Assembly: GCA_034520565.1 (NCBI GenBank)
Contig: JAXHNL010000002.1
Location: 704,001 to 768,000, forward strand
Length of the DNA: 64,000 bases
Direction of reading: 5' to 3'
DNA from: Halodesulfurarchaeum sp.
Lineage (GTDB): Archaea; Halobacteriota; Halobacteria; Halobacteriales; Halobacteriaceae
Positions 1,108 to 36,944 of this stretch are shown piece after piece. The position numbers and the translations under genes are program-made. The number at the start of each line of letters is the position of its first letter. Position 1 is the stretch's first letter. Below the pieces are notes generated by a model. It did no database searches. It was not told the origin of the DNA and saw only the letters and a program-made list of their open reading frames with translations.

Positions 1108-2106
1108 ATGGCCCTCCACGCAGTCGACGACTTATCGGACGCGTACCGGGCGACCCGGTCGTTCCTGCTCCCGCTCGAGTGGGGACGCTGGCTCCGGTTG
1201 GCGCTGCTCTCCCTGTTCGTCGCGGGAAGCAGCGGCGGCGGTGCCCCGACGGGGAGCTTTCAAGGACCGCTGAGTTCGAGCCCCGATCCGACTCCCGGAG
1301 GGGGCACCGAACTCGCCGGTGCCATCGACCAGGTTGGTGCGATGCTGGCGAGCAATCTCTGGTTCATCGTGACCGTCATCGGATTCTTTTTCCTCCTCGG
1401 GCTGGTGCTCCAGTGGATCGCCGCGACCTTCGAGTTCACCTTCCTCGAGTCGCTTCGCACCGACGAAGTACACGTCAGGCAGTATTCGAGTGCGAACTCC
1501 GGACTCGGGACGCGCCTCTTCGCGTTCCGGATCCTGTTCGGCCTGGCAACGCTTCTGGTGTTCGGCGGACTGGCACTGTTGGCGATCGGACCGATCTTGT
1601 ACGGTGTCGCCCCGGCCGGCCCGCTCCTGCTGCTCGTGTTTCTGGTCCCGCTGTTCTTCGTTCTGGGGATCGTGGCCTCGGTCGGCTACGTCTTCACCAC
1701 GGCCTTCGTCGCCCCCATCATGCTTCTCGAGGACCGCGGGGTACTTTCGGCCTGGAAGCGTTTCTGGGGCGTGTTCAAATCGGCCTGGCAGGACTTCCTC
1801 GTGTTCGTCCTGGTCGGGCTCTTCTTGATGATCGCGATCGGGATCGTCGTGGGCATCGTCATGGCGGTGATCGGCATCGGGATCGCCCTCCCGGTCATCG
1901 TGGCGCTGCTGGCCGGCGGCCCACTCCTGGCCGCGCTCCTCGGTGTCCCGGCCGCCTTCGTCGCGCTCCTCGCCTGGGCGATGGTGCAGGTGCCAGTCCA
2001 GACGTATCTCAGACACTGGGCGCTGCTCGTGCTGGGTGACGTCGAGCCCGAACTCGACCTGATTCCGGACCGGCGGGCCGAGATCAGAGGCGAAACGACT
2101 TCCTGA
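1108..2106 (+). CDS. Conserved multi-pass membrane protein
   Basis: ATG 1108 (MALHAVDD) within ORF 253..2106; many hydrophobic helices; the upstream extension is antisense to pus10. Confidence 0.8.
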   Translation: MALHAVDDLSDAYRATRSFLLPLEWGRWLRLALLSLFVAGSSGGGAPTGSFQGPLSSSPDPTPGGGTELAGAIDQVGAMLASNLWFIVTVIGFFFLLGLVLQWIAATFEFTFLESLRTDEVHVRQYSSANSGLGTRLFAFRILFGLATLLVFGGLALLAIGPILYGVAPAGPLLLLVFLVPLFFVLGIVASVGYVFTTAFVAPIMLLEDRGVLSAWKRFWGVFKSAWQDFLVFVLVGLFLMIAIGIVVGIVMAVIGIGIALPVIVALLAGGPLLAALLGVPAAFVALLAWAMVQVPVQTYLRHWALLVLGDVEPELDLIPDRRAEIRGETTS

Positions 2107-2126
2107 GTGGGAGGCGTGGGTCGGCT

Positions 2127-2720
2127 ATGCGCCGATTCATCGTCCTCGGACACACCGCGCCGACCGACCCGGATTTCAGCCTGGACGATCTCGCGGGCGG
2201 GGCCGGGCGGTTGGACGTCCTCGCCCGGTGTGTCAACTCGGCGTTTTTCCTCTCGCATGGCATCCGCGAGCCCGTGCGGGTGTACATAGTCCTTTCGGAT
2301 GCGGTCACGATCCGCCTGGAAGGGGTCGAATTGCGCTACATGAACCCCGACGAGCGGAACATCGCCTCGCTCCTCCGGCAGGCCCTCGAGGCCCGCGCGG
2401 ACGCCATCGGGCACAGCGAGGTCGAGTCGACGCCGGGGATCTACGTCTCGAACCGGGGCTTCGAGGACGTACTCAAGGCGGCTGCCCGGGAGGGGGCGAT
2501 CATCCAGCTCCACGAGGACGGCGAGCCGATTTGGGAGGTCGAGCCGCCCGAGAACCCGGCGTTCGTGCTCTCGGACCACCAGGATTTCACCGCGGAGGAG
2601 CAGGCGCTGCTCGAGGAGTTCGCCACCCGGCGCGTGAGCGTCGGGCCCGAGGCCCTCCACGCGGATCACGTGATCTCGATCGTCCACAACTACCTCGATA
2701 CGGACGGGTATTCGATCTGA
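2127..2720 (+). CDS. trmY: tRNA (pseudouridine54-N1)-methyltransferase
   Basis: SPOUT motifs DLAGGAGRLDVLARC, PDERNIA, FVLSDHQD, VGPEALHADH. Confidence 0.95.
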   Translation: MRRFIVLGHTAPTDPDFSLDDLAGGAGRLDVLARCVNSAFFLSHGIREPVRVYIVLSDAVTIRLEGVELRYMNPDERNIASLLRQALEARADAIGHSEVESTPGIYVSNRGFEDVLKAAAREGAIIQLHEDGEPIWEVEPPENPAFVLSDHQDFTAEEQALLEEFATRRVSVGPEALHADHVISIVHNYLDTDGYSI

Positions 2721-2769
2721 GCCCTCGTTTCGAAACGTTAAACCCGCGCCATCACGTTCTCTCGCCTGC

Positions 2770-2842
2770 GGGCCGGTGGGGTAGCTTGGTATCCTTCGGC
2801 CTTCGGGTGGCCGTAACCGCGATTCAAATTCGCGCCGGCCCA
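2770..2842 (+). tRNA. tRNA-Pro(CGG)
   Basis: Acceptor stem GGGCCGG/CCGGCCC-A; anticodon stem CGGCC-TTCGGGT-GGCCG; T-arm CGCGA-TTCAAAT-TCGCG; no intron; CCA not encoded. Confidence 0.97.
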
Positions 2843-2844
2843 CT
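2830..2844 (+). repeat. attL core, 15 bp TCGCGCCGGCCCACT
   Basis: Exact direct repeat of 22860-22874, which lies about 50 bp downstream of the integrase stop. Confidence 0.88.
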
Positions 2845-2906
2845 ACCTATATACCCCTTTTCCAGCCTTCACTGACAGGTTTAGCGGGTTTTCGGGGGTG
2901 GTCGGT

Positions 2907-3016
2907 TTGAGCGTTTCCGAGGACTCTGAGCCCCTGATCTGCAACTACTGTGGGGAGTACATCGAGGAGCCGATGCAGCGGTGTCCGGCTCTCGATGAGG
3001 GGTGTGTCGGCCATGA
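2907..3016 (+). CDS. Small Cys-rich (CxxC...CPALD) protein; possible C-terminal half of an att-split ORF
   Basis: TTG 2907: SVSEDSEPLICNYCGEYIEEPMQRCPALDEG; one extra G in the G-run would give ...VCRP stop. Confidence 0.55.
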
Positions 3017-3232
3017 GGCTGTAGACGGACCTCCGAAATTGTAAACAGCTGAAATCAGCCTCATCCAGCCCCTCGAACTCGAAAACAGGGCCTCAAATCC
3101 GCCCTGTATACACCCTCCCGGGGTCCCGATTTTCGTCTCGATTCCGCCCCCGGGTGGCCGAAGGCACGCGCAACAGGCGGCCGAGGGCCAGCGGGCGGGT
3201 ACGCGGGCGCGAAGCGGCGGGGTGATCGCGGC

Positions 3233-5701: not shown

Positions 5702-6298
5702 ATGACGGATTCGGAAGTTGCGTGGCTCAAGCCTGAGCAGGTTGAGGCGATGCGCGACGTCGCTCACACGGGGCGGAACGGTCACCGTGACGAAGCGCTT
5801 GTCACATTGCTTTATGACACCGGTCTTCGTCGAGCAGAGGCCGCGGCCCTCGATCGGGAAATGCTCGACCTGGATGACGGAACGCTGTTCGTCCCCGGCC
5901 CGATCCAAAAGGACTACCCCAACGACAACTCACCACCACCAGTGACGATGGAGCTCGACCAGTCGGGAGATCTACGTACAGTTCGAACGCTCCGATCCTA
6001 CCTTTCGTGGAGAAACGACGCTCGGTCACCACTATGGACGGGAAGAGCATCACCGCGTTTGTCGGGTAAGAGCATCAACAACGTGGTAAACGTCTCGCCA
6101 AGCGGGCCGACGTCCAGCCTCACCTCCAAGTAGGCCGCGGTGATCCGGAGGACATACTCAGCGCATACGCTCCGCCACTCAATTGCTTACCGCATGCTTC
6201 GCGTCGAAGAAAAGGACATCTACGCGGTGAAGAACCGGCTTAGGCACGCTTCAATCTCGACAACGGACCGAAAGTACGCTCATTTGGATATGGTATAA
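5702..6298 (+). CDS. Short (catalytic-domain-only) tyrosine recombinase, XerC/D-like (frameshifted near 6090-6135)
   Basis: RDEALVTLLYDTGLRRAE; downstream frame SAHTLRHSIAY...RLRHASISTTDRKYAH gives the full R-HxxR-H-Y set. Confidence 0.88.
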
Positions 6299-6320
6299 TG
6301 TCGTAAAAGAATACTTCATC

Positions 6321-6924
6321 TTAGAATGTTGGAATATCCATATTACGATCTTGATTTCCTAAGTGAAACTCAGTAGATTCCGTCATGTCTCTAATATTGT
6401 CTAATATTGAAAACCGCTGTATATCTTCATACGAATTCCCGGCAGCATCCTTATAACTAAATTCGACCACTAGCCTATCGCTACTGTTGTATTCCTCTAT
6501 CTTGTTTTCAATTTTCTTCTCAGTTCCCGAAACGCCAAAATCTGACCCGGAAGGAATTGGAAAATCAAGATTGTATACTTCTTCAGGAAGTACAACCTTT
6601 TTCCCCAGGTCTGATTATCGTCTTCGCTTTCTTCAAGATAAATCAACTAGCAGAGACATCTTGCGCTAATCCACCACCTATATTCACAAACGATAGACAA
6701 AAATTTGGCCCGTGGAAGTTTCTAACAGCTGCCTTTAATTTCGGTTCATAATTCAATTTTCTAGTTTTAGTCATCTCATCGGTTTGTGCGGAGATCTCGG
6801 CTGTTTGGTTTTTCGTCTGTAAATAATATTTCCAAGTTGCTATCGCCAAAACAACAGTAAAGAAGGCAAGAACGACACTTGAAGCAATTTGAATACCGGT
6901 TGCGATCTCGTTAGCAATCACCAT
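6321..6924 (-). CDS. AT-rich cargo protein with N-terminal TM helix (frameshifted)
   Basis: ORF 6643..6924 with a hydrophobic N-terminus; an open frame continues to about 6321 (...VVEFSYKDAAGNSYEDIQRF...). Confidence 0.55.
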
Positions 6925-7124
6925 ACCCAGATCACATTCCCCAATCAGGTATTATTTTTGCTGTTGCAGCATTTAATTAATTGAGAGAAATTGGTCTAAA
7001 AGTAAGTCGTAGCGAAGATACTAAACACGTTACAATCCATCAAGGACCTTGCTCTAAATCATTAATCGGACGATTATCTTACACTCAAAACCTTTTGTAA
7101 GCCGCTAATCATTCACTGGAAAGT

Positions 7125-7533
7125 TCAACCATATATTATATAGGGGCTGCTATTCGCAAAGAAAATCCAGCCACTACAAAAGCAAAACCGAATATCGAGT
7201 CGGCAACATTCATTACATCAAAATATGATTGGCGACGTGAGGGACTTGCAAATCTCTCCAGTCCTTCGCTCAACAAAATCAAGTGAATGAACTCGCATCC
7301 TCAACGCGACGAAAGCCAATAAAGAAGCACCCAATGCCATGAATCCGAGTCCCGTAGTACCGGTGATCTGGTGATACGTATACAATCCCAAAAAGCAAAA
7401 CCATATTCCTAATGCTGCTACTGATTAGAGACTTACACATCAATTGGACTCGGCCAATATTCCGATAAAATGATATTCCTTGGTACAAATGTCCCAATAC
7501 CGTATCTGCAAGAATCAGTCTAATTCGGTTCAT
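7125..7533 (-). CDS. AT-rich cargo membrane protein (frameshifted, 3' end approximate)
   Basis: ORF 7279..7533 plus a downstream hydrophobic frame (...DSIFGFAFVVAGFSLRIAAPIII). Confidence 0.4.
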
Positions 7534-7621
7534 GATTTATTTCAAGATTCGAGATTAAATAAAAGCGTACATTGAAAGGATCGGGGAAATCTTTTCCATA
7601 TTCCAAATCTCTCGAATATTA

Positions 7622-8022
7622 ATGTTTGAAGACACTCCCAATAGCGAGGAACCAGACACTGGGTAGAGGACCGAATTCATGAAATATATAACTATGAGGA
7701 CTTGAAGGATTGCGATATTGATTATCTGCACAATCGCGAATTTGGTTTAAAGGCTAATATGAAAATATTTGAAACGGGTTTTCCTGATGAAGACGTTGAG
7801 GATCATCTTATAGCAATCACAGATGTGGAGGATGATTTTCTGAGTCTAGAAGCGCTTACCCCTGCCGAAAAAATGAGGCTACAATTTCTCAAAATGGAGG
7901 CTGAAAAAGAGATTCACAGGGCAAAAGGTCACCGGATGAATTTGCGAAGGGAACACAGGAACAAAATGGCCAATGCGTTTGCTGACCTGGTGAAGTCAAT
8001 TGGGGATCTAATTCCTTGGTGA
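7622..8022 (+). CDS. AT-rich cargo hypothetical protein (5' part frameshifted)
   Basis: ORF 7702..8022; likely true ATG at 7622. Confidence 0.5.
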
Positions 8023-18862: not shown

Positions 18863-19018
18863 AATTAATAGATAAGTTATTAACCACGTTTTGACATGGG
18901 AAACGGACCTAGGTCGCAAAAGTTTAGACGCCCTTCTATCCAATACTGGGCAGTAGAAGGGCCGAAAAGGGGAGATTAGAAAAACCATCCCAATGCTTTT
19001 GCGTTAGGGTAGTGAAGG

Positions 19019-20466
19019 ATGAGTCAGGTAGTAAAGCAAAGTGCAAACTTTCGATGGGAGCTGGGCTTAGAACCCAAATTCCATCTACTCCTAGCAGGAT
19101 GGAAGCAGGAAAAGCATGACCCCAGAAATCCGGACGTTTGAAGAGCGTAAAGAATCGCCAAATCAGGGGAAGAAGCATCTCTAATTGTTCGGGCAAGTAG
19201 CTCACAAACTGATCTTGAGGGTGCTTTAGAGGCAATAGGGGCTGCGGTTAGGCCCATTTCAGATGATCAGTACAAGGTGGTCATGCCGGAAAGCGATCTC
19301 CACCGTTTAGAAGGGATCTCTGGGATTGAGCAGATCGAAATTGAAATCGAAGGGGAGCCTTTAAGAGGGAAACCTGAGCTCCCAGTTCGCTATGATTCAG
19401 TAAGGGATCTGCGAACTGGGTTATTGAGGCATACAGACAGATCTCCAATATTAGCCTCTTATGAGGTCCCTGAGGGAAATGTGGATATTGCCATAGTGGA
19501 TTCTGTGTATGAACTCGAATCTTTGGAAGGTTGGGACCCAGGATTTGACACAATCGCCGAAGAAGATTATACGGAAAGTGACGATGAGGTTTCTACTTCA
19601 ATTCACGGTTGGCATATTTCAAATTTGATCAGTTTCTTTATAGATCCAGAAAGAGTCACTTTTCATACGTACCGTGTGGTCAATGAGGATGAAGAAGAAT
19701 CAATGAATCAAGTCTAATCGAGGCTATAAAGTCGGCCCGAGATGATGGGGTCGATTTGATTAATCTATCAGTAAGTTTTGATCATATTGGTTCAAGGGTT
19801 AAACAATGCACACCTACTTCAACAATTGTGGTATATGCTCACGAGATAAGAAAAGCAATAGAAGATGGGATTACAGTCGTAGCTGGTGCAGGGAATGATT
19901 CAACATCTGAGAAGACATCCTGTCCAGGCGCGGTAGATGAAGTCATCGCTACAGCAGGTTACATCCCAAAGTGTCCCAATGGGCCCACTGGACCAGGATC
20001 AATCTGGATGTATTATGACGATGACGAAATAGAGGCAGACCCATTGGGAATGACACCAATTTGTAGTATGCAAGGGTGTGGCTATACCGAAATGTGTTCT
20101 GAAAATAGGGAGGATATTTATTGGGAGAATAATTCCGAACATGAAGGGAATAAGCCCGATGTGGCTGCCCCAGCAGCAATAATCATGGGGGGTGAACACG
20201 TTTCAGTTAATCCCGGGTTTATTGGTGGGACGAGTTATGCTGCTCCTATTGTAACTGCACAAATAGCAAATTGGTTACCTGTGTTCAAGTTTGAAGATAT
20301 CACATTAATACCCCAAGAAATCAGAAACGGTATTCGAGCGGCAAATAAAGATTTGGATACTGGGGAAAACCTAAAATTCGACGGAATTAGTGCATTCGAA
20401 GAGATAGGAGCGACATATAACATTCAACACGAAGAGTCCTCGGTTGATCTTCATCAGCCCCGTTGA
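19019..20466 (+). CDS. Subtilisin-like serine protease (S8), AT-rich cargo (frameshifts near 19170 and 19715)
   Basis: Asp IAIVDS, His IHGWHIS, oxyanion VVAGAGND, KPDVAAP, Ser GGTSYAAPIV; prodomain-like N-terminus; no signal peptide seen. Confidence 0.85.
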
Positions 20467-20479
20467 GAATTCCGGATTC

Positions 20480-20764
20480 CTAGCCGAACCCCTCAATACC
20501 CGATCCACAGTCGGCAGGCCGGTACCTCGCGTCGATCTCCTCCTGGAGGTAGAGCTGCCGTTCATCGTGAGCTCGTACATCTCGTTATGAATCGGCGCGA
20601 TCATGCCGGCGTACTGGAGTCTTCCACCGCTCCCCGATCCGTCCCGTCGAAGCGGTGAACTCTATCGCTTCGGCCATCATCGTCGGCGTTCCCCAGCCTT
20701 CACTGTCGAGGTGCTCGAGGATGCGTTCGTCGACTTGCTCCATCCAGTGAGCCGACCGTCTCAT
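20480..20764 (-). CDS. PhiH1-repressor-like winged-HTH protein (frameshifted)
   Basis: MRRSAHWMEQVDERILEHLDSEGWGTPTMMA...YAGMIAPIHNEMYELT. Confidence 0.7.
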
Positions 20765-21474: not shown

Positions 21475-21762
21475 GTGACGAGGGCGAGATTTTGGAGGCC
21501 TGAAATGAGGGGCGCACCCCTCACGTACGACGAGCCCGACGCCCGAGCGCGACGGGCACGGTCCCGCTTTGCCGGGTCGTCGGGTCGACCATGTACGTCC
21601 CGAAAAACGCCTGCCCCTACTGCGGCGAGGAAGGCGGTCGGGATGCGTAACTGCACCCATCCGGTGATCCAGTACGACGAACGCGAGGAGCCCTACTGCG
21701 GCGCTTGTGGGGCGATGCTGGGGCATCGCTCCGCGTCCGATATCGGGATCGCCGAGACATGA
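21475..21762 (+). CDS. Small CxxC zinc-finger ORF(s) upstream of the integrase
   Basis: ACPYCGE and PYCGACG motifs in different frames; ATGA overlap with the integrase start. Confidence 0.45.
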   Translation: MTRARFWRPEMRGAPLTYDEPDARARRARSRFAGSSGRPCTSRKTPAPTAARKAVGMRNCTHPVIQYDEREEPYCGACGAMLGHRSASDIGIAET

Positions 21763-22808
21763 CCGATGGAGAGACGTCGCGACGATCCGACCGACCTCTC
21801 CCTCGAAAGCGGTATCCCGGTATCTCCACGTCGAGCCCCGGACTCGACCGAGAAGAGCATTCACGGGTGGGAGTACCGCCTGAAACCTTCGTCGAGTGGT
21901 GCGAGCCGTCGGGATCGAGCGGTCGGCGAGCTGCGCCGGTACGATCTCGACGAATACTACGAGCTCCGGAGCGCGGAGATCGCGCCGGCCACCCTCGAGG
22001 GCGAGATGTGGACGCTCAAGATGTTCGTCGACTTCCTGGGTGATATCGGGGCCGTGGAGTCCGACCTGGACGAAGCGGTTCGTATCCCCGATATCGACCC
22101 CGAGGATCGATCGAACGATACGAAGCTCGAAACCGACGCCGCACTTGCCCTGATCCAGTATTATCGGGATTCCCCGAAAACTACGCGACTCGGGCCCACG
22201 CATTCCTCGAACTCCGGCGTCGACGGGGCCCGGCAGGGCGGCCTCCGGGCGCTCGATATTCGCGACGCCGAGCTGGATGACAACCCGTACGTTTACTTCC
22301 GGCACCGGCCGGAGCAGGGCGCCCGCTCAAGAACAAACGGAGCGGCGAGCGGCCCGTGGGACTCACGTCCGAGACGGCCGACGTGATACGGGCCTCGTCG
22401 ATGGGCGCCGGTACGGTCCACGACGACCAGGGGAGGCAGCCCCTACTCGCGAGTGCCAAAGGACGCCCGACGTCGAACACGTTTCGAAATTGGACTACAT
22501 GGCAACTCAGCCGTGTCTTCACTCGGCCTGTCCGCACGGGAGGAACCGGGAGACGTGCAAATTCGTCGCCACAACCACGCTTCGATACCGAGTTCCCGAA
22601 GTCCGCACCAAATTCGAACCGGGACGATCACCTGGCTGTTGAACCTCGGCTGGCCGCCGCAAGACGTCGCCGAGCGTGTCAATGCCAGCGTGAAAACGAT
22701 CGGAAGCATCACGACAAGGCCGATCCCGACGAGCGCCGCCGTCGGCTTCTCGATCGAATGGAGGATCGACGTCGACCACTCGTTAACAGTCTCAAAATAG
22801 CACAATGA
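21759..22808 (+). CDS. SNJ2-family tyrosine integrase (multiple frameshifts)
   Basis: GARQGGLRALD, FRHRPEQG, TQPCLHSACPHGR, PSSRSPHQIRTGTIT, ERVNAS, C-terminal RMEDRRR; att repeat just downstream. Confidence 0.9.
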
Positions 22809-22859
22809 CATTACCAAAATCGCAACATCTGCACGCACCGCCACGAAACCGATTCCACG

Positions 22860-22874
22860 TCGCGCCGGCCCACT
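22860..22874 (+). repeat. attR core (15 bp)
   Basis: Exact match to 2830-2844. Confidence 0.85.
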
Positions 22875-23135
22875 TTTCCCACCGTTTTTACCGAGGAGCG
22901 GTGCGACTCCTCGAGTCGCGCCGCGAGTCCTCCGGTGGGAAATTGCCACGGGAATTTGAATTAGGGAACAAATCTTCGATTTGTGAGTGAAATTCAAATT
23001 CGCGCCGGCCCATTCATTCCCCACCTTTCGCTGCGCTCGGTCGCACAGCGACCTCGGCTCACGGCGTTTCGCGCCGTTCGTCCAGTCAGCAAGGCCGCCG
23101 GCCTCGCTCGGCTCGCAAAAGCTGGACCAAAACGG
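22875..23135. repeat. Palindromic intergenic block with a second copy (21 bp, 22992-23012) of the tRNA 3' end
   Basis: TTTCCCACCG/CGGTGGGAAA, GAATTTGAATT/AATTCAAATTC, ACAAATC/GATTTGT; 22992-23012 equals 2822-2842. Confidence 0.7.
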
Positions 23136-36017: not shown

Positions 36018-36944
36018 ATGACTCTTCGCGTCACGTTTCTGGGGACCAGCGGGGCCATCCCCACGACGGCCCGGAACCCCAGTTCGATCTTCTGCCGGCG
36101 GGCCGGCGAGGCGTTCCTCTTCGACGTCGGAGAGGGGACCCAGCGCCAGATGATGCGCTTCGGGACGGGGTTTGACGTCGACGCCGTCTTCCTGACTCAC
36201 GTCCACGGCGATCACGTCCTCGGCCTCCCGGGCCTGATCCAAACCTGGGGGTTCAACGAGCGAACGGATCCGCTCGCCATCTATACCCCTCGTGGAACCC
36301 GGCGCGAGATCGTCTCCCTGATCTATGCGATCGCGGACGAGCCCGACTATCTCGTCACCGTCGAGGAAGTGACGCCCGGCTCGACCGTCCGGGAGCACGA
36401 GGAGTACGAGATCCGGGCCATCGAGGCGGACCATCGAACGGCTGCGGTGGGCTATGCGCTCGTGGAAGCCGACCGGAAGGGTCGCTTCGACCGCGACAGG
36501 GCCGAAGAACTGGGCGTCCCCGCCGGTCCGAAGTTCTCTCAACTCCACGAGGGCGAGCCGGTCGAACTCGAGGACGGAACCGTCGTCCAGCCCGAGGAAG
36601 TCGTGGGTCCGGCCCGACCCGGCCGCCGACTCGTGTACACCGGCGATACGAGACCGATCGGCCCAGTGGAGACGGCTGCCGCGGACGCGGACCTCTTGAT
36701 CCACGACGCGACCTTCGCGGAAACCGAGAACGACCGGGCTCGCGAGACGGGGCACTCGACTGCCCGGGAGGCCGGTCGACTCGCCGAACGGGCCGGCGCG
36801 AAGCGACTGGCGCTGACACACGTCTCGCCACGGTACGCCGGGGATACGGGGATCCTCCTCCAGGAGGCAAGAGCCGCCTTCGACGGCGAGGTCATGCTGG
36901 CCGAGGACGGCCAGACCGTCGAGATTCCGTATCCCGACGAGTGA
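36018..36944 (+). CDS. rnz: Ribonuclease Z
   Basis: FLGTSG, THVHGDH, GDTRP, HDATF, HVSPRY. Confidence 0.95.
   Translation: MTLRVTFLGTSGAIPTTARNPSSIFCRRAGEAFLFDVGEGTQRQMMRFGTGFDVDAVFLTHVHGDHVLGLPGLIQTWGFNERTDPLAIYTPRGTRREIVSLIYAIADEPDYLVTVEEVTPGSTVREHEEYEIRAIEADHRTAAVGYALVEADRKGRFDRDRAEELGVPAGPKFSQLHEGEPVELEDGTVVQPEEVVGPARPGRRLVYTGDTRPIGPVETAAADADLLIHDATFAETENDRARETGHSTAREAGRLAERAGAKRLALTHVSPRYAGDTGILLQEARAAFDGEVMLAEDGQTVEIPYPDE

Follow-up and report, generated by a model that had tools for sequence, protein, structure and literature searches.

What is the meaning of an open reading frame (ORF) that starts on the stop codon of an integrase gene and runs straight through the attachment site beside it? 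The question is raised by a locus in a 64,000-nt stretch of Halodesulfurarchaeum sp. DNA (contig JAXHNL010000002.1, positions 704,001 to 768,000; hereafter the window), where an integrative element with an SNJ2-type tyrosine integrase occupies a tRNA-Pro(CGG) gene. A sequence-only reading had proposed that the ORF at 22805-22874 is cut by integration, is rejoined across attP on excision exactly in frame with a Cys-rich ORF at the other end of the element, and acts as an integration-state switch by encoding a directionality factor. Our comparison with related elements leads to a modified answer, which we hold with good confidence: this stretch is probably the integrase-side half of a bridging ORF common to a family of such elements, the element around it is a fossil, and the in-frame fusion is most likely accidental.

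The limits of the element were established from its att cores and from empty sites. The sequence TCGCGCCGGCCCA occurs exactly at 2830, 22860, and 23000 on the plus strand and with one mismatch at 36789 on the minus strand, giving four matches against 0.43 expected. By direct reading, attL and attR (2830-2844 and 22860-22874) share 15 bp, TCGCGCCGGCCCACT, and the insert (2845-22859, ~20 kb) lies within tRNA-Pro(CGG). Two genomes of the same genus have empty sites. In G011, the tRNA flank (homologous to window positions 2000-2842, 87% identity) joins the homologue of 22850-22904 (91% identity), and in G001, it joins that of 22850-23056 (87% identity). Sequence from 22875 onward therefore adjoined the tRNA gene before the element arrived, making the 15-bp copy the true attR, as had been proposed from the sequence. 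The 21-bp copy at 22993-23013 was also considered as attR and is ruled out by the same empty sites. It closes a remnant (22875-23013) that is present after the tRNA in G001; G008, G009, and G010 are without it, and there the tRNA is followed by the homologue of 23013 onward. The remnant looks like the residue of an earlier integration, and similar second copies stand behind attR in many relatives' loci. With insertion into a tRNA 3' end, short (13-15 bp) flanking direct repeats, and an integrase at one end, the layout is that of SNJ2-type elements.

At the integrase end, the ATG at 22805-22807 overlaps, as ATGA, the TGA at 22806-22808 that stops the last integrase frame (ORF 22356..22808). In the provirus, this ATG opens a 61-aa ORF (22805..22990) that starts MTLPKSQHLHAPPRNRFHVAPAH, crosses the core, and ends in flanking DNA; it had no Pfam match. 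In the in-silico circle, where 22874 is joined to 2845, the frame continues as ...APAH, then YLYTPFPAFTDRFSGFSGVVG, then LSVSEDSEPLICNYCGEYIEEPMQRCPALDEGC..., without a stop and in the frame of TTG 2907, so that the predicted open join from 22805 into the Cys-rich ORF is confirmed. The integrase, the bridging ORF, and the Cys-rich ORF (hereafter the CxxC ORF, for its C-x2-C motif) all lie on the plus strand, with 161 nt between the integrase stop and the first Cys codon. To judge the join by chance, both arms were shuffled 20,000 times with dinucleotides preserved and scored for openness over 132 nt; 30.5% of shuffles were open, and multiplication by one-third for frame gives a chance of ~0.10 for an in-frame open join. 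Taken alone, the window's join is close to chance, and the comparative data give it meaning. The features of the locus are listed in the table.

Table. Features of the integrated element and its attachment sites (window positions)
Feature	Position	Strand	Remarks
tRNA-Pro(CGG)	2770..2843	+	Integration target, 3' end rebuilt by the element; ARAGORN; beside the same upstream gene in same-genus genomes
attL core TCGCGCCGGCCCACT	2830..2844	+	Pattern search and direct reading
Distal half of canonical bridging ORF, SRRPTTYIPLFQPSLTGLAGFRGWSV then stop	2830..2910	+	TGA 2908-2910 overlaps TTG 2907; direct reading
P arm	2845..2906	+	AT-rich TATATA box 2850-2855; Shine-Dalgarno-like GGGGGTGGTC ahead of CxxC start
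CxxC (zinc-ribbon-like) small ORF	2907..3044	+	TTG start (alternative GTG 2898); 3' end frameshifted
SNJ2-type tyrosine integrase pseudogene	21766..22808	+	Transcribed towards attR
Integrase-proximal half of attP-spanning ORF	22805..22874	+	P' arm 22809-22859; core 22860-22874
attR core of ~20-kb element	22860..22874	+	Empty sites in G011, G001
Older ~140-bp remnant	22875..23013	+	Ends with 21-bp tRNA-3'-end copy (22993-23013); not this element's attR

Homologues of the CxxC ORF were found in 88 of 301 order-level genomes, including the window's own (G000). For the 30 relatives' pairs with separate ends taken for study, integrase and CxxC homologues shared a strand and stood ~13-36 kb apart, one at each end of the element. 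The proximal direct repeat was found for each element (13-23 bp, always a tRNA-like 3' end, nine types), and attP was then joined by script. This yielded 34 junctions, comprising 31 in-silico joins (the window included) and three taken from contiguous DNA, namely the intact attP of G219:C2 (a 23.5-kb contig) and of plasmid NZ_CP084093.1, and a hybrid between tandem elements, G021a. Joined in silico, G219:C1 gives exactly the junction that G219:C2 carries in contiguous DNA, which validates the joining method. The 34 junctions are related and do not count as independent trials, with near-duplicates in G139/G309, G001/G010, G219C1/C2, and G243/G287.

Openness was scored between the integrase stop and a point 50 nt short of the first Cys codon. 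Across this set, one specific frame, the bridging frame, has no stop in that interval in 30 of 34 junctions, compared with 4 for the CxxC frame and 5 for the third. The integrase stop shares an ATGA with an overlapping ATG in 24 of 33 junctions; the bridging open frame begins at this ATG in 21 of 34 and otherwise a few to 23 nt away. The bridging ORF typically ends ...(R/G)(W/C)S(A/L), with its TGA overlapping the GTG or ATG start of the CxxC ORF. Within this 3' end, 4-16 nt before the CxxC start, 32 of 34 junctions carry a Shine-Dalgarno (SD)-like motif, G(A/G)GGTGGTC (GAGGTGGTC), presumably akin to the haloarchaeal anti-SD. Although it varies between 142 and 331 nt, the spacing of the integrase stop and the first Cys codon is 1 mod 3 in 22 of 33, and bridging ORFs in intact relatives are 37-96 codons long. 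A complete bridging ORF ending on the CxxC start was scored in 29 junctions by the script rule and in G135 by inspection, hence in 30 of 34; the remainder are the window, G031 and G044 (both fused), and the hybrid G021a. An ORF that is whole only across attP is therefore a conserved feature of the family, and on this point the sequence-only reading was right. The circular records PL23 (NC_007428.1), Humcor2 (MW344764.1), SNJ2 (NC_074646.1), and an H. urmianum plasmid show integrase, bridging ORF, CxxC gene, and next gene in the same succession. The gap after the integrase is unannotated in NC_007428.1 (20411-20655) and NZ_CP084093.1 (1646-1923), where it holds the bridging and CxxC ORFs in a chain of genes with overlapping stops and starts. 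Bridging ORF and CxxC gene usually go unannotated because records are cut at att.

The motif of the CxxC ORF, C-x2-CG-x2-I-...-CPALD-x-G-x-C, stands beside the junctions of all 32 relatives and in its fuller form reads C-x2-C-G-x2-I-x5-[QK]-x-C-[PA]-A-L-x2-G-x-C-[RQH]-P-stop, the stop overlapping the next start. Among 25 relatives' ORFs, lengths are 27-49 aa (34-49 aa in 24 of these), and the TGA overlaps the next start in 22. The window's copy has the first three Cys and CPALDEG, and one base is missing before the last Cys codon; where relatives end G-x-C-R-P-stop, it ends CVGHEAVDGPPKL and a stop, and the ORF that follows is reduced to ATG AGG CTG TAG. Against Pfam and NCBIfam, the window's CxxC ORF gave only zinc-ribbon matches below cut-off and reached no curated family; a search of a phage collection returned eight records, all with E ≥ 2 and none a real match.

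An ORF of this kind has been described previously. In Dyall-Smith et al. (Genes 2021; PMC7911831), a "bridging CDS" (coding sequence) of variable length and sequence embeds attP, is split in the provirus, and lies between the integrase gene and a CxxC-motif gene; it is reported in Halfvol1, Halfgib1, Humcor1, Harhisp1, SNJ2, HRPV-9, and Halfvol2. A full-text literature search for "bridging CDS" with attP found only this paper. For SNJ2, a study of 2026 (NAR; PMC13107129) names the attP-spanning gene orf26 and reports that ORF26 fused to GFP could be detected when a plasmid promoter drove its expression. In the circle, orf19 through orf1 form one co-transcribed set, whose start site lies within the integrase gene, 419 nt ahead of the stop codon; only excision rebuilds the replication operon. 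When any one of orf19 to orf26 carried a nonsense mutation, excision remained intact (for orf26, circularisation too) and replication was abolished. Excision thus does couple the integrase-side transcript to genes beyond attP in SNJ2, as the sequence-only reading had envisaged for the window, and an integration-state switch is established there; a role as directionality factor is not, as the orf26 mutants keep excision and circularisation and lose replication. The premise about SNJ2, that recombination is assisted by small ORFs downstream of the integrase, inverts the gene order: an earlier study (PMC5861418) gives an operon orf3-orf2-int with a promoter upstream of orf3, in which Orf2 and Orf3 enhance integration and Int alone excises. 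These accessory genes, encoding a coiled-coil protein (Orf2) and a protein with a winged helix-turn-helix (wHTH) resembling MarR (Orf3), lie upstream of int. A word search of the same paper for a spanning or disrupted ORF, read-through, or orf25 gave no match.

Set against this family, the window is out of register. The bridging ORF of the G246 element has the same peptide as the window's distal half (...SRRPTTYIPLFQPSLTGLAGFRG...), and the two P arms are the same over the first 56 nt after the core CCCA. The canonical family frame in the window is open from the integrase stop, where it is the integrase's own terminal frame, and has no start codon after the TGA. Counted from the ATGA start, the core T is 55 nt away (1 mod 3), and the ATG half is +1 relative to the distal half. 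As a result the core is read GCG CCG GCC CAC (APAH), as against xxG CGC CGG CCC (RRP) in 23 of 26 loci with this type of core, a set in which, within each of the pairs L033/L139 and L038/L141, the peptides agree and the records are probably identical. The shifted ATG frame coincides with the CxxC frame and is open over the P arm, as it is in G246, and this produces the in-frame fusion. The window's ORF accordingly starts on the integrase stop, contains the core, and is complete only in the circle, as a bridging CDS does, and runs on into the CxxC ORF where a bridging CDS would end separately at its start. We infer that decay, the combination of arms of two lineages, or an assembly indel caused the frame shift. 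A change of one nucleotide within the 51-nt P' arm would agree with the general decay, and the fusion is most likely a by-product of decay or of mismatched arms.

A selected fusion would be a different matter: integration would split one gene, and a product with bridging and zinc-finger parts, made from the circle only, would steer the direction of recombination. The open, in-frame join and the preserved ATGA overlap with the integrase stop are what this would predict, and G031 and G044, with intact integrases, have fusions of 118 and ~120 aa. In 30 of 34 junctions, however, the bridging ORF is separate and out of the CxxC frame, and the window itself keeps a stop-on-start overlap and an SD-like motif that a fusion would not need. 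Its integrase and the 3' end of its CxxC ORF are broken, its join has a chance of ~0.1, and SNJ2 orf26 nonsense mutants excise and circularise (PMC13107129). We consider a selected fusion quite unlikely. Conservation of frame in relatives, which the sequence-only reading had named as a check, therefore gave a divided result: the attP-spanning open frame is kept in 30 of 34 junctions, and the exact in-frame entry into the Cys-rich ORF, found in the window and in 2 of 33 other junctions, is not a rule. In both of these, G031 (L116/L115) and G044 (L122/L121), the natural fusions of ~118-120 aa are without the usual stop-on-start region.

The integrase bears out that the element has decayed. In the order, 214 of 301 genomes contain homologues of its N-terminal part (21766-22386), with open frames of ~340-480 aa, and the protein matches the SNJ2 integrase with 37.8% identity (E 3e-13). 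Searches by tblastn with the G246 and Humcor2 integrases placed frame switches at ~22310, between 22497 and 22558, and at ~22708-22718. In place of the HYD motif stands HHD, the catalytic Tyr being replaced by His, and two stretches are locally scrambled; the intact catalytic Tyr of SNJ2-type integrases is thus missing, and the frame switches at least three times in 1.1 kb. Most of the G246 element's length is syntenic with the window's insert, and by that comparison several of the window's genes have switched frame. The window's element is a decayed fossil, and, as it is dead, no integration-state switch operates at this locus.

Could these lesions instead be errors of assembly, with one base fewer (or two more) in the true 22809-22859, an ordinary bridging ORF, and integrase frameshifts that are also errors? 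The genome is in 2 contigs and only 80.7% complete by marker genes, and about 3 of 23 host ORF frames matched to G001 are switched over 57 kb of flanking DNA (one further pair being an antisense shadow). The integrase, however, has at least three switches in 1.1 kb, far above the host's ~3 in 57 kb, and neither the substitution of the catalytic Tyr, nor the scrambled integrase stretches, nor the destroyed start of the gene after the CxxC ORF (ATG AGG CTG TAG) is what this account would lead one to expect. An artefact of assembly seems unlikely to us.

Several observations weigh against an accidental fusion in a decayed element. No relative is close enough to place an indel in the P' arm: a search of genome contigs gave nine loci, the best at 59% identity, none of which locates it, and the best integrase identity is ~60%, so far as these sequences go. 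The host genes of the assembly carry a few frame switches as well, a search for public sequencing runs found none, and some of the apparent decay could be assembly error. The fusions in G031 and G044, accompanied by intact integrases, indicate that a fused form can exist in seemingly live elements, and the window's own fusion might once have been functional, although we find this the less economical reading. Finally, G058 (L149/L045, on G058:C75, at tRNA-Pro) has an intact 48-aa bridging ORF that reads the core as APAH and ends by an ATGA on a longer, acidic, non-CxxC gene. The window's phase is used there in an intact bridging ORF and is by itself no proof of a frameshift. This core phase, together with a matching P arm, also means that the arms of two lineages using the tRNA-Pro site could have been combined in the window.

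We then consider what in the bridging ORF is under selection. In 21 pairwise nucleotide alignments, which are not independent, substitutions at codon positions 1, 2, and 3 numbered 373, 322, and 350 for the bridging ORF and 178, 158, and 302 for the CxxC ORF, and gaps were multiples of three in 20 of 110 and 16 of 30 cases, respectively. The pooled ratio of nonsynonymous to synonymous change (pN/pS), from small counts in four indel-free pairs, was ~0.9 for the bridging ORF versus ~0.3-0.4 for the CxxC ORF. Most of 26 listed bridging peptides have an isoelectric point (pI) of ~10-12, and their GC content at third codon positions (GC3) is 0.43-0.68, not above that at second positions (GC2); the rows for the window, G001, G010, and G135, which the "last stop" rule mishandled, were not used in this listing. 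What is conserved is the openness of the frame and the positions of its start and end, the peptide evolving as if unconstrained.

These figures raise the prospect that nothing is encoded, the P' and P arms being only DNA bound by the recombinase and their open frames a matter of chance in GC-rich DNA. The unconserved peptides, with their even substitutions and with gaps that are seldom multiples of three, agree with this, as does the absence of raised GC3, and P and P' are conserved recombination arms in SNJ2-type elements (PMC5861418). Yet one specific frame is open in 30 of 34 junctions, versus 4 and 5 for the others, over 37-96 codons and nine core types, and the integrase stop and the CxxC start mark the two ends of this frame. 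In SNJ2, moreover, the ORF26-GFP fusion was detected and orf26 nonsense mutants fail to replicate (PMC13107129). An absence of coding is very improbable.

A frame whose openness and ends are kept, and whose peptide is not, fits a translation-coupling relay. We suggest, tentatively, that the bridging ORF may be selected only for openness and for its overlaps, as a translational relay across attP by which the CxxC and replication genes would be translated only from the circle. The even substitutions over codon positions, the gap lengths, pN/pS, high pI, flat GC3, the SD-like GAGGTGGTC, and the G031 and G044 fusions would all be compatible with such a relay; a compositionally defined basic peptide is possible as well. 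Were the relay true, the replication defect of SNJ2 orf26 nonsense mutants would be one of polar uncoupling and not of lost protein function. A word search of PMC13107129 found no mention of "polar". The relay offers a testable alternative to the published reading of a functional protein.

Other observations concern the arms, the rest of the element, and its host. In the P arms of several relatives (e.g., G128, G163, G287, G153, G094, G228, G130, and L131), an AT-rich, TATA-like box lies ~5-15 nt after the core and is followed, inside the bridging ORF, by a GC-rich inverted repeat (e.g., AGCGGCC...GCCGCT) and T-rich DNA. Its role may be that of promoter, arm site, or terminator-like hairpin; the hairpin is missing from the P arms of the window, G246, G251, and Humcor2. 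Directly upstream of the integrase, the ORF at 21475-21762 (95 aa) ends 4 nt before the integrase start and, by reading, contains Cys pairs of the form C-x14-C-x2-C; in Humcor2, too, genes with CxxC motifs immediately precede the integrase. A second, XerC/D-like tyrosine recombinase at 5702-6298 is split into two ORFs (5702-6133 and 6140-6298) and is 73% identical to an intact 198-aa gene of the G246 element; a low-GC island follows at ~6000-8000 (GC 0.40). GC is also low at 19000-20500 (0.43-0.45), where the ORF 19756-20466 resembles, by reading, a fragment of a subtilisin-type protease (GTSYAAP). Elsewhere in the same genome are three other SNJ2-type integrases (G000:C2:524761-525840, C2:57918-58914, and C2:52245-52619), which comprise a copy that seems to occupy a single frame (35% identity to the G246 integrase), a frame-switched copy, and a fragment. 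At ~990-1003, upstream of the tRNA, there is a frame switch in a host ORF that has a 446-aa homologue in G001, either as a pseudogene or through an assembly indel; the case bears on the trust that single-base frames in this assembly deserve.

Taken together, the picture of the family is as follows. In intact relatives, the bridging ORF begins at or beside the integrase stop, crosses the P' arm, the core derived from the tRNA, and the P arm, and stops on the CxxC start; only in the circle does it connect the integrase gene with the genes at the element's other end. In SNJ2 these are the replication operon, transcribed from the start site inside the integrase gene, and integration cuts both bridging ORF and operon, as others have shown for SNJ2 only. 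In the window's decayed element, the halves no longer meet in the family frame, and the ATG frame is, probably by accident, the CxxC frame, and open. A circle-only ORF amounts to a built-in sensor of the element's integration state, and in SNJ2 it gates replication. The layout holds over many SNJ2-type elements, plasmids included, and over nine tRNA-derived core types; to this the window adds no mechanism, but it shows such a module after decay.

In SSV1-type integration, it is the integrase gene itself that spans attP, is split, and is whole only in the circle. Such a split integrase is ruled out at the window, where 51 nt separate the integrase stop from the start of the core and the integrase therefore stays whole on integration. 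The integration state also changes expression across attP in the sib retroregulation of lambda and in the circularisation-dependent expression of Tn916-type and other integrative and conjugative elements; these depend on an RNA-processing site or a promoter fusion, have no att-spanning ORF, and are bacterial, with unrelated proteins. Humcor2 integrates in tRNA-Pro and has a P arm resembling the window's. The proviruses described in PMC7911831 differ in being intact and inducible with a separate CDS, whereas the window's CDS is disrupted or fused. The likeness to SNJ2 lies in an attP-containing ORF downstream of the integrase, on the same strand and whole only in the circle, followed by the CxxC gene and overlapping genes; in the SNJ2 record, an 80-codon ORF begins 3 nt after the integrase stop and ends with its TGA on the GTG of gp25 (positions taken from the record and not from the paper's orf26 coordinates). 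Unlike SNJ2, the window's element is not a pleolipovirus (its relative in G246 has terminase-like and head-like matches), it is decayed, with ORF halves out of register and a join in the CxxC frame, and its downstream genes are ribbon-helix-helix (RHH), SWIM-domain, and wHTH-like ORFs. The phenomenon is already published, and the window is a decayed, out-of-register member; what is new here is the apparent lack of constraint on the bridging peptide and the extension of the layout beyond pleolipoviruses, seen in the G246 relative, two circular plasmids, and the non-CxxC target in G058.

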